The notes under the pieces were generated by a model, which saw only the letters and a program-made list of their open reading frames with translations, had not been told where the DNA came from and searched no databases. A program made the translations under genes and the position numbers. Shown here in pieces: positions 29,390-31,518 of a stretch of DNA of 64,000 bases. This DNA is from Escherichia coli (GTDB lineage Bacteria > Pseudomonadota > Gammaproteobacteria > Enterobacterales > Enterobacteriaceae), in the NCBI RefSeq assembly GCF_003334305.1, contig NZ_QOWS01000009.1; one strand, given 5' to 3'. How positions within the stretch are numbered: position 1 is the first letter of the stretch; each line of letters starts with the position of its first letter.

Positions 29390-30574
29390 TTAAACGGGCT
29401 GCCCCTGATGCGACATCCGCGTCGCCAGCGGCAGCCAGCACAGCACGATCAACAATCCCATTAAGGTCATCAACAACCCCAGGCTGCCCTGACCGGTTTG
29501 CGGCAACATCGCAGAGAGCGACGCCAGCACGCCGGAACCAATGTTTTGCAGACCGCCGACCAGCGCGCCAGCCGTGCCCGCCAGGAAGGGGAACGGCTCC
29601 ATCGCGCCGCTGGTCGCCAGCGGAAACAGCATCCCGGCACCGAAAAAGAACAGCGCGGCGGGAACGAGCAGCGTCCAGACATTCATCACGCCAAACCAGT
29701 CGGGGATCCACATCAGCAAGCCAGCCAGCAGGCAGCAGATAACCGACTGCCACATTAACGTGGAGAAGCGTTTATTGGGACGTCCGGCAAACCATGCGCC
29801 AAAAAACGCTGCCGGAATCGGCAGAATAAACAAAATACTGACCGTCATACTGCTCAGCCCTAACACCGCGCCCATCAGCACGCCGGAGCAGGCTTCAAAG
29901 GCGGCAATCCCGGCCAGACCGCCAATCAGCATCAGCAAATAACAGTTAAAACCGCTGTTACCGAAAAGCGTTTTATAACTGGTAAGCAGGCGCGTGCGCG
30001 GTGCATCGACCGGACGCGTTTCCGGCATCCAGCGGGCCATACTGAAGGTCACACCAGCACAAAGAACCAACAAAAAGAGATAACAGGCGCGCCAGTTCCA
30101 CATCGTATCCAGCAGACCGCCGATTAGCGGTGCGAGCAACGGACTGACGAGAATCCCCATGTTTAACAGGCTGTTAGCATGGCGCAACTGTGTCCGTTCA
30201 TATAAATCTCGCGGCAAAGTACGCGCCATTACGCCGCCAACGCCGGTGCCCATCCCCTGCATCGCGCTGGCGGCAATCAACACCGTCAAACTGGAGGTCG
30301 TGACCGCGACCAGCGTTGCCAGCATAAAAATGGACATTCCGACGAGGATCACCGGTCGGCGGCCCACGCGGTCGGAAATCGGGCCATAAAACAGCTGTGA
30401 GACACCGTAAGTCAGCAGATAAGCGCCCATTACGCTCTGCACCGCCCCTTCACGGACGTTGAGATCGCGCGCCATATCGGCAATAGCTGGAATATAAATG
30501 GTTTGCGCCATCTGACCGACGGCCACGAGTAATACCAACATCAATAACAAATTGACGTTTCTTTGCCTTTTCAT
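29390..30574 (-). CDS. emrD: Multidrug efflux MFS transporter EmrD
   Basis: Track ORF 29390..30580; start at MKRQRNVNLLLM to give 394 aa. Confidence 0.9.
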   Translation of the reverse strand: MKRQRNVNLLLMLVLLVAVGQMAQTIYIPAIADMARDLNVREGAVQSVMGAYLLTYGVSQLFYGPISDRVGRRPVILVGMSIFMLATLVAVTTSSLTVLIAASAMQGMGTGVGGVMARTLPRDLYERTQLRHANSLLNMGILVSPLLAPLIGGLLDTMWNWRACYLFLLVLCAGVTFSMARWMPETRPVDAPRTRLLTSYKTLFGNSGFNCYLLMLIGGLAGIAAFEACSGVLMGAVLGLSSMTVSILFILPIPAAFFGAWFAGRPNKRFSTLMWQSVICCLLAGLLMWIPDWFGVMNVWTLLVPAALFFFGAGMLFPLATSGAMEPFPFLAGTAGALVGGLQNIGSGVLASLSAMLPQTGQGSLGLLMTLMGLLIVLCWLPLATRMSHQGQPV

Positions 30575-30763
30575 TATCACGGATGCTTTTATAAAAATAA
30601 TTAGAATAAGTCACTACGCATTCCCATAAATGCGGGAGAGGAATCTATCACATTGATGAATGTTAGCCAGATATACGCCAGGAATGGGGAATTGTTTAGC
30701 GGCAGAATATGTAAACAAAAGCGGCAATAAATGTTGCCGGGAGGGATTACGTGCGAACTGTAA

Positions 30764-30861
30764 CCCTCTCCCCAAAGGGGCGAGGGGGAAACCACCGTTC
30801 CCTTTCAGAAAATGAGCTAAACATTGCACGGGACGGTCCCCTCGCCCCTTTGGGGAGAGGG
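30764..30861. repeat. Inverted-repeat element: 24-bp perfect arms separated by about 50 bp
   Basis: ccctctccccaaaggggcgagggg (30764-30787) is the exact reverse complement of cccctcgcccctttggggagaggg (30838-30861). Confidence 0.7.
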
Positions 30862-30944
30862 CTAGGGTGAGGGGCACAGGCAGCGCAGGTGCAAACATTC
30901 TGCTGGTAGAAGAAGCCCCCAACTCCAACCCGCACGCTAAATAT

Positions 30945-30974
30945 AAAAGGGGAGCGGTTACCCGCTCCCCTTTG
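30945..30974 (-). terminator. Rho-independent terminator of tisAB (bidirectional hairpin)
   Basis: aaaaggggagcgg-tta-cccgctcccctttt about 20 nt downstream of the tisB stop. Confidence 0.7.
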
Positions 30975-30992
30975 GTGCGACTTGAATCTGAA

Positions 30993-31082
30993 TTACTTCA
31001 GGTATTTCAGAACAGCATCAAGCAGTTGCAGTGCTGCAACAATGAGTTTGAGGATAAGAATGGCGATATCCACCAGGCTCAT
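30993..31082 (-). CDS. tisB: SOS-induced type I toxin TisB (29-aa membrane peptide)
   Basis: Minus-strand translation MSLVDIAILILKLIVAALQLLDAVLKYLK with AGGAG SD; too short for the ORF track. Confidence 0.85.
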   Translation of the reverse strand: MSLVDIAILILKLIVAALQLLDAVLKYLK

Positions 31083-31354: not shown

Positions 31355-31442
31355 AACTGTGATCGATACTCAACTATGCCCTAAATACGTCAAAATTCGT
31401 GCCGAAATTGCGCGTTCTGCGCGGAACACGTATACTTTCAGT

Positions 31443-31518
31443 GTTGACATAATACAGTGTGCTTTGCGGTTACCAGCCGCAGGCGGCTGATGAAACCTCG
31501 CTCCGGCGGGGTTTTTTG
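31443..31518 (+). ncRNA. istR: IstR-1 antitoxin sRNA (longer IstR-2 isoform would start upstream, near 31370-31380)
   Basis: About 75-nt unit ending in an intrinsic terminator (GC-rich stem plus tttttt at 31512-31517); its 5' 20 nt ttgacataatacagtgtgct is near-identical to 31189-31208 in the tisAB leader, so the two RNAs are complementary; TATACT -10 at about 31432. Confidence 0.6.

Follow-up and report, generated by a model that had tools for sequence, protein, structure and literature searches.

A perfect inverted repeat between emrD and tisB of Escherichia coli is a copy of the BoxC/PIT/TMECO repeat family, whose units abut YcjD-type DUF559 genes

Results

Gene Context and Folding of the Palindrome

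The DNA analyzed is a stretch of 64,000 nucleotides of E. coli (contig NZ_QOWS01000009.1), here called the window. Genes around the palindrome were taken from the RefSeq annotation of a genome that is identical over this region, istR was recognized by Rfam, and terminator-like hairpins were located by a terminator scan.

29390-30574, minus strand: emrD (RefSeq annotation)
30656-30730, plus strand: ysdE, encoding a small protein of 24 amino acids and converging on tisB (RefSeq annotation)
30722-30739, minus strand: second terminator-like hairpin with T-run, CGGCAACATTTATTGCCG CTTTTGTTTA (terminator scan)
30946-30973, minus strand: hairpin resembling an intrinsic terminator of tisB, outside the repeat, with a 12-bp stem, a 4-nt loop and a T-run (terminator scan)
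30993-31082, minus strand: tisB (RefSeq annotation)
31388-31517, strand not given: istR (Rfam)

The palindrome (30764-30861) lies between the convergent genes ysdE and tisB, past the tisB terminator, and begins 34 nt past the stop codon of ysdE; with respect to emrD it is upstream, at 190 nt from the start codon. The original prediction had placed it downstream of emrD. However, emrD is encoded on the minus strand, and the element therefore precedes that gene and follows both tisB and ysdE in their directions of transcription; the idea of a structured RNA downstream of emrD had been built on the wrong orientation. The hairpin that had been taken for the tisAB terminator does have a terminator-like stem with a T-run on the tisB strand, but its loop is TTAC (4 nt) and not TTA. 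The descending arm of this terminator (30961-30980) shows 80% identity over 20 nt to the BoxC hairpin at 30839-30858 (CCCGCTCCCCTTTGGTGCGA versus CCCTCGCCCCTTTGGGGAGA), a likeness that probably arose by chance between G+C-rich hairpins. The second hairpin (30722-30739) lies between the palindrome and emrD, overlaps the 3' end of ysdE on the opposite strand and might insulate emrD from tisB read-through.

The left arm of the palindrome (CCCTCTCCCCAAAGGGGCGAGGGG) occupies positions 30764-30787 and the right arm (30838-30861) is its exact reverse complement, so that the perfect 24-nt arms and the 50-nt spacer that had been claimed were confirmed in the letters. The inverted repeat can be extended to 27 nt with 96% complementarity (30761-30787 and 30838-30864). 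In 100 dinucleotide-preserving shuffles of the window no inverted-repeat match was obtained even when up to three mismatches were allowed, in line with the expectation that such arms rarely arise by chance. The DNA fold of the region amounts to -41 kcal/mol, with z = -8.3 and -8.7 for the two strands when compared to shuffles, and the RNA fold in its context is likewise far more stable than that of shuffles (z = -7.3). Each arm is by itself a near-palindrome (CCCTCTCCCC-AAA-GGGGCGAGGG) and two folds are therefore possible for the region, a single long hairpin or a pair of short ones.

Open reading frames of 39-104 amino acids cross the repeat (30751-30870 on the plus strand, 30747-30935 and 30614-30928 on the minus strand). 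As genes they were considered spurious, their products being typical translations of the repeat (LSPKGRG, PLAPLGRGLG, PLPKGARG). In databases, reading frames of this kind probably give rise to spurious "hypothetical proteins" and to DUF559 proteins with false extensions at the N- or C-terminus.

The Palindrome Is the Core of a BoxC Doublet

BoxC or PIT repeats were reportedly described by Bergler in 1992 and by Hoyne and Maher in 2000 and 2002. According to Holder et al. (2015; PMC4666352), the TMECO sequences are the same as the BoxC repeats of the 1990s and as the PIT elements of Hoyne and Maher, and strain MG1655 contains 23 copies, among them five inverted pairs. The published consensus consists of three blocks, CCCTCNCCC N3-6 GGGNGAGGG N3 GGGNGAGGG. 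An exact match to it is present at 30839-30873 on the plus strand; it is the only one in the 64-kb window, and none was expected from shuffles. This right unit is of type "A mm", its second loop being CTA where other units have TTA. The right palindrome arm is made up by the first 23 nt of the unit, which differs by one loop base from the K-12 entries 7, 11, and 15 (Holder Table 1). The left unit does not match the three-block consensus, for it consists of the two hairpin blocks only and the third block was found on neither strand. Alignment with paralogous copies and with K-12 and O157 defines the following parts:

30749-30912, no strand: haplotype-specific segment relative to K-12 and O157, comprising the whole doublet and its flanks, right edge fuzzy (alignment with K-12 and O157)
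30750-30763, plus strand: left flank, ACGTGCGAACTGTAA region, common to paralogous doublets (alignment of paralogues)
30764-30787, minus strand: left arm, BoxC hairpin read as CCCTCGCCCCTTTGGGGAGAGGG, third block and second loop missing (consensus search, paralogue alignment)
30788-30837, no strand: doublet spacer, 50 nt, partly alignable with the spacers of paralogues and of DUF559 3' ends, chiefly at its ends
30839-30874, plus strand: complete BoxC unit CCCTCGCCCC-TTT-GGGGAGAGGG-CTA-GGGTGAGGGG (exact consensus match)
30875-30900, plus strand: right flank CACAGGCAGCGCAGGTGCAAACATTC, kept beside type-A units elsewhere (paralogue alignment)

Paralogous doublets are located at trmL-lldD (K-12 TMECO 17 and 18), cpxA-yiiM, and rhaA-rhaD, and they align with the window copy through the arms, the spacer ends, and both flanks, with a mean column identity of 72% for the alignment as a whole. 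The left unit of these paralogues carries an extra 12 nt, CCCTCACCCCGG, that are absent from the window copy, indicating that the left unit in the window has lost its third block. The right flank equals the spacer of about 27 nt that separates converging pairs of units, and the left flank resembles the last coding bases of DUF559 genes of Enterobacter and Phytobacter (about 10 of 15 positions match, which is suggestive only). As judged from these alignments, right and left units together with their conserved flanks form a doublet of about 150 bp and, by consensus match, the palindrome is a copy of BoxC (PIT/TMECO), a dispersed E. coli repeat that has been catalogued since the 1990s. The element is thus not novel; a match to a known repeat family is the very outcome that the original prediction had named as speaking against itself, although its statement that the REP consensus is not matched was correct, as the window element shows no similarity to REP.

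Like other BoxC copies, the element is intergenic and multi-copy, has a right unit that matches the consensus exactly and forms an inverted pair, as do the units at five K-12 sites. Partial deletions that spare the hairpin and a strong variability among strains have also been described before: TMECO loci are unusually variable and inverted pairs often shed small parts, yet keep the hairpin, whereas most loci are orthologous across strains (PMC4666352). Unlike the known copies, the second loop in the window is CTA and not TTA or CCG, and the left unit lacks the third block. Also, BoxC pairs in K-12 always combine a type-A with a type-B unit, whereas in the common window haplotype both arms have a type-A hairpin. 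The emrD-tisB locus is absent from the 23 TMECO sites of K-12, and the names emrD and tisB did not turn up among those entries of the Holder supplements (63 loci in all) that were covered by the search. Single strands of type A, B, and mm oligonucleotides adopt a triplex in vitro, as observed by CD and NMR, and the triplex was not detected in vivo (PMC4666352); the right unit of the window differs from these oligonucleotides by one loop base.

Copy Number and Alternative Alleles in E. coli Strains

When a 126-nt query was used, the family was found at 75,784 places in 5409 of 5426 complete E. coli genomes (15 places per genome at the median, 29 at most), and the element is therefore a multi-copy dispersed repeat. 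At emrD-tisB the doublet is present or absent depending on the strain; 1498 of the 5426 genomes, including strain W and strains of O26 and O103, carry it. With a query of 441 bp for the locus, full coverage was obtained in 1510 genomes and K-12-like places of 302 bp in others.

Three major haplotypes exist at emrD-tisB. In K-12 and O157 the doublet is replaced by a multi-copy, REP-type palindrome of 39-40 bp (GGTAGGGCGGATAAGATGCGTCAGCATCGCATCCGACAC), which fits the REP consensus (a palindrome of the GCCGGATG...CTTATCCGGCCTAC type). This assignment is based on consensus and copy number, because the MG1655 RefSeq record has no repeat features at either of the two loci inspected. In a B2 haplotype, that of the ST131 strain CU568-3, neither tisB nor, apparently, istR is present between ysdE and ivbL.

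The doublet is found at cpxA-yiiM in 161 genomes only and at rhaA-rhaD in 788. The alternative allele at cpxA-yiiM is a REP sequence of two units and that at rhaA-rhaD a short unrelated stretch. REP/BIME sequences are thus the alternative allele to a BoxC doublet at two independent loci, emrD-tisB and cpxA-yiiM, and the two palindrome families seem to replace each other in one intergenic slot. The elevated strain-to-strain variability of BoxC was encountered at all three loci. When filled and alternative alleles were compared at emrD-tisB, cpxA-yiiM, and rhaA-rhaD, no target-site duplication and no clean empty site was found, the alternatives being REP/BIME or short unrelated sequences. Of the suggested "small repeat or MITE-like insertion", the multi-copy, strain-polymorphic repeat holds; terminal inverted repeats and small size are those of a MITE, but a target-site duplication is lacking.

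Origin of the Perfect Arms

Identity to the window is 99% or higher in 1442 of the carriers at emrD-tisB, and 56 are more divergent. In three strains sampled from the divergent group the left hairpin was CCCTCTCCCTGAAAGGGCGAGGGG in every case, with one further substitution in two of them. CCCTCTCCCTGAAAGGGCGAGGGG is the canonical type-B hairpin of the paralogues and has three mismatches with the right arm; the rarer haplotypes therefore combine a type-B hairpin on the left with type A on the right, whereas both are of type A in the window haplotype. In strain L7_E1373 only 3 of 231 bp deviate from the window; these lie within 5 bp of the left hairpin, and at each of them the base of this strain restores the canonical type-B hairpin. 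For three independent substitutions within 5 bp, all of which create complementarity, a rough probability of 2e-5 was estimated.

The imperfect arm occurs on three flank backgrounds, one close to the window and two diverged by about 1.8%, which suggests that the imperfect state is ancestral. By this distribution, the imperfect left arm is most likely the ancestral state, and the perfect arms are the outcome of one recent, clustered 3-nt event, so that their perfection is no evidence of constraint. The event could have been a quasipalindrome template switch or a conversion by another type-A unit, and the two are not separable. Template switching at quasipalindromes is an established mutation mechanism of E. 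coli (PMC7202029). As at the quasipalindrome hotspots dealt with there, such as that in thyA, an imperfect repeat was made perfect by a clustered change templated by the other arm. In contrast to those hotspots, the arms in the window are 50 nt apart, the event is deduced from haplotypes, and ectopic conversion gives the same outcome.

BoxC-like Doublets in Other Bacteria

One genome per bacterial species was scanned with the doublet pattern (left hairpin, 40-70 nt, right hairpin) and at least 120 loci matched. Among the matches listed are loci from Prevotellaceae, Rhizobiales, Devosia, Sphingomonas, Hydrogenophaga, Cellvibrio, Anaerolineae, Acidobacteria, Planctomycetota, and Enterobacter, with more than 20 doublet copies in one metagenome-assembled genome of the Prevotellaceae, a lineage of Bacteroidota. 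The survey of Holder et al. had allowed only second loops of 3 nt and had reported Proteobacteria only (PMC4666352). The layout is constant among the matches listed: an inverted third block and a second loop precede the left hairpin, next come 43-69 nt of spacer, whose base composition is native, and on the far side the right hairpin leads into a second loop and the third block. In roughly half of the 47 complete doublets among these matches the hairpin parts are perfectly complementary, and in some doublets from other taxa the arms are identical to those of the window over the 23-nt hairpin. None of the 47 is bordered by a target-site duplication, the flanks just prolonging the palindrome.

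In Prevotellaceae the second loop is a mini-hairpin of 13-15 nt that differs between the two arms of one doublet. These mini-hairpins covary (GTCC/GGAC, GCCC/GGGC, GTCAC/GTGAC) and, among 22 distinct units, one of their base pairs is T-A 10 times and C-G 11 times; such clean covariation points to selection on single-strand structure.

In Enterobacter asburiae (locus L028, 5555-5805) and Klebsiella quasipneumoniae (L149/L150, 1852-2110) tandem arrays are enclosed by the outer BoxC units. They consist of three to four units of hairpin plus spacer, with spacers of about 44 nt, that are nearly identical to each other, and the Klebsiella array directly follows a DUF559 gene. A transposase between the units was considered for the Enterobacter locus L028, where the genes between converging units resemble neither nucleases nor transposases.

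BoxC Units Abut Genes for YcjD-type DUF559 Proteins

Open reading frames within 400 nt of BoxC hairpins were clustered in the scanned loci, and the largest group shared across loci encodes a protein of about 120 amino acids that matches Pfam DUF559 (E = 1e-31). Eight DUF559 reading frames are contained in the BoxC-selected loci (1.1 Mb), and for seven of them a BoxC hairpin is no more than 60 nt away, in many cases on either side, compared to 10.8% of the control reading frames (binomial p = 1e-6 for the excess). YcjD has long been predicted to be a Vsr-like PD-(D/E)XK nuclease (PMC1189080). In K-12, ycjD is the only DUF559 gene; the encoded protein ends in ...RRSPSP* and the TGA stop codon lies in the loop of a BoxC hairpin, with TMECO number 9 located 130 nt downstream of the gene. 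The gene lies near fabI (envM), the neighbourhood where BoxC was reportedly first described.

Six enterobacterial loci, from Enterobacter, Kluyvera, Klebsiella, Franconibacter, and Phytobacter, were chosen through the similarity of their proteins to YcjD alone. All six end in CCCTCACCCCGG-CCCTCTCCC-TGA/TAA-...GGGAGAGGG, behind which come a spacer and a type-A unit, and at the level of nucleotide alignment the 3' ends of enterobacterial DUF559 genes have the same doublet architecture as the window. Four distant metagenomic homologues, whose called proteins contain no repeat-derived peptides, are abutted by lineage-specific BoxC-like hairpins, which are present on both sides wherever upstream sequence is present. 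BoxC units therefore abut YcjD-type DUF559 genes in 11 of 11 loci chosen by protein, often with the stop codon in the hairpin loop, and a single-copy gene flanked by BoxC units is found in K-12, in the six enterobacterial, and in the four metagenomic loci. A wider search for DUF559 matched 25,063 cluster representatives; among the best 146 from beyond E. coli, 47 (32%) have BoxC-derived peptides next to the nuclease domain (PSPxxGEG, PLSPxGRG, PLPxGER) or a P-x-P end (PSP). A chimeric query that joined nucleotides 1-325 of ycjD to window positions 30755-30880 gave one collinear alignment in strain NCTC86.

The gene ycjD was found in 3306 of the 5426 genomes and is reported from phylogroups A, B1, and C, where it takes the place of eefRABCD (PMC12817139). 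In a sample of 60 genomes the median number of BoxC places was 15 in those with ycjD and 4 in those without it (p = 7e-7, uncorrected for phylogeny), yet O157 has no ycjD and still about 10 places. Numbers of TMECOs were reported as 29 in strain 55989 versus 1 in IHE3034, as none in Salmonella, and as 143 in Enterobacter asburiae (PMC4666352). In the searchable literature we found no report that links DUF559 with BoxC.

Some further features of these genes were observed. The 3' region of K-12 ycjD (locus L143, 1400-1700) contains a duplication of about 106 nt of the 3' end (GGAGACGGTGCTGGAGAATATTC... twice), which NCTC86 lacks; in the latter strain the annotation gives ycjD as a pseudogene whose C-terminus is absent. 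Enterobacterial DUF559 genes are preceded by a conserved 5' motif, CTGAAGGCNGATTCCA, and a hairpin. The gene is located at hemW-yggN in Enterobacter, Franconibacter, and Phytobacter, between an SBP gene and efeB in Kluyvera and Klebsiella, and at sapF-fabI in E. coli, and such chromosomal positions, differing by genus, suggest that the gene module itself relocates. A mismatch in the hairpin was considered as a recognition feature of the Vsr type and rejected; it occurs in 15 of 23 K-12 units but is not universal beside DUF559 genes, and since the cross-phylum pattern had in part enforced it as well, it stays speculation.

Discussion

We consider it likely that the 98-bp palindrome is the core of a BoxC doublet which originated as a gene-less copy from a DUF559 module and has no function specific to its locus. 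In its arms, spacer ends, and flanks the doublet shows homology to the one at the 3' end of YcjD-type DUF559 genes. It would be an offshoot of this gene module, non-autonomous and gene-less, and would be tolerated, as selfish or neutral DNA, in a permissive spacer close to a terminator. While replication or transcription leaves it single-stranded, it may fold into one long or two short hairpins, and the right unit may be able to form an intrastrand triplex. Such folding would lead to slippage and template switching. The 12-nt loss of the left third block lies between two CCCTC direct repeats, which fits replication slippage between them, and a template switch or a conversion to type A could have introduced the clustered 3-nt change that made the arms perfectly complementary.

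That the doublet is a mobile REPIN- or MITE-like element, moved in trans by YcjD and brought to emrD-tisB by transposition or homing, appears less probable, and we regard it as rather unlikely. It would account for the multi-copy nature and the strain-variable presence at several loci, for long inverted termini around a variable core, for the tight flanking of DUF559 genes by BoxC units, and for the higher number of BoxC places in ycjD-containing genomes (a comparison not corrected for phylogeny). Against it, no target-site duplication, clean empty site, or mobility event was seen, alleles differ by replacement and not by clean insertion, most TMECO loci are orthologous across strains (PMC4666352), O157 retains its copies without ycjD, and the sole solved homologue of YcjD, PDB 3HRL, is uncharacterised. 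The comparison with known mobile repeats is divided in the same way. MITEs resemble the doublet in size (about 120-160 bp), in being present in many copies and polymorphic for presence or absence, and in having a variable core between long terminal inverted repeats, whereas the doublet lacks a target-site duplication and no autonomous insertion sequence with a recognised transposase shares BoxC ends. REP/BIME sequences and the REPIN-RAYT system are similar in that short, G+C-rich palindromes, often in inverted pairs that form a long hairpin, lie in intergenic, terminator-proximal positions, and in that one small nuclease or transposase gene is flanked by its own repeat units, a geometry close to that of ycjD and BoxC. 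However, BoxC is unrelated to REP in sequence, DUF559 is a predicted Vsr-like PD-(D/E)XK nuclease and not a Y1 HUH transposase, and REP at emrD-tisB is an alternative allele and not the same element as the BoxC doublet.

No evidence of a locus-specific role as RNA or operator was found at emrD-tisB. The locus itself and five loci from across phyla gave only sub-threshold matches to eukaryotic miRNA hairpin models of Rfam. A consensus scan revealed no terminator- or promoter-like site at the element, and neither arm is followed by a T-run; a G+C-rich hairpin with a T-run, as in intrinsic terminators, is present at 30946-30973 and at 30722-30739 instead. K-12, which lacks the element, has an identical emrD protein (WP_000828746.1). 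The lack of an Rfam family and of terminator or promoter sites, the absence from most strains, and the many copies elsewhere suggest that there is no local role, a conclusion that we infer from the lack of evidence at this locus.

It is accordingly improbable that the doublet acts as RNA, as a stem-loop in the 3' UTR of ysdE or in tisB read-through transcripts that blocks 3' exonucleases or insulates emrD from SOS-induced read-through of tisB and so assumes the role of the K-12 REP. REPs stabilise upstream mRNA, and the place of the doublet is taken by a REP in K-12 and O157; the extremely stable RNA fold and the position between convergent genes, beyond the tisB terminator and 34 nt after ysdE, would also suit such a role. 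On the other side, in addition to the Rfam and terminator results, which leave the "structured RNA" of the original prediction unsupported, the element lies downstream of the strong tisB terminator and is missing in about 72% of E. coli genomes, and according to earlier work PIT elements neither act as promoters or terminators nor affect RNA polymerase (cited in PMC4666352). That the dyad is the site of a dimeric regulator controlling emrD or ysdE, a variant of the suspected protein-binding dyad, is very hard to credit; the position of a perfect dyad 190 nt ahead of the start codon of emrD would speak for it, but the sequence recurs about 15-26 times per genome in unrelated surroundings, is missing from most E. 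coli, including K-12 with its same emrD protein, has 24-nt G+C-rich arms and a 50-nt spacer that differ from known operators, and is separated from emrD by the terminator-like hairpin at 30722-30739.

For the family as a whole, the physical association between BoxC units and DUF559 genes is strongly supported by the 11 loci chosen by protein and by the 47 of 146 cluster representatives, and the most fitting reading of the window element, a doublet core with no apparent local role, is that of a copy without the gene, derived from the doublet at the 3' terminus of a YcjD-type module. The direction of this relationship could be either that BoxC units are the ends of a nuclease element or that the nuclease gene homes into BoxC. 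Tentatively, and with somewhat more doubt than confidence, we propose that BoxC repeats are the terminal inverted-repeat units of a compact DUF559-nuclease element (unit, gene, inverted unit) that occurs across bacterial phyla, and that the gene-less copies are its non-autonomous derivatives. The nuclease may then create, maintain, or target the gene-less units, and such a putative tie would parallel that between REPINs and RAYTs or between a homing endonuclease and its site.

The palindrome itself is ordinary, being another copy of a known repeat whose perfection is a mutational accident. The copy at emrD-tisB does offer a clean natural case of quasipalindrome "correction" and of the alternation of REP and BoxC in one slot. 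If the proposed relationship is true, an orphan repeat known for 30 years, since 1992, and the very large, uncharacterised DUF559 family would explain each other, and the genomic instability reported near BoxC repeats would gain a candidate enzyme. A by-product of the family survey may thus be a testable candidate for the origin, or for the partner enzyme, of an orphan repeat family.
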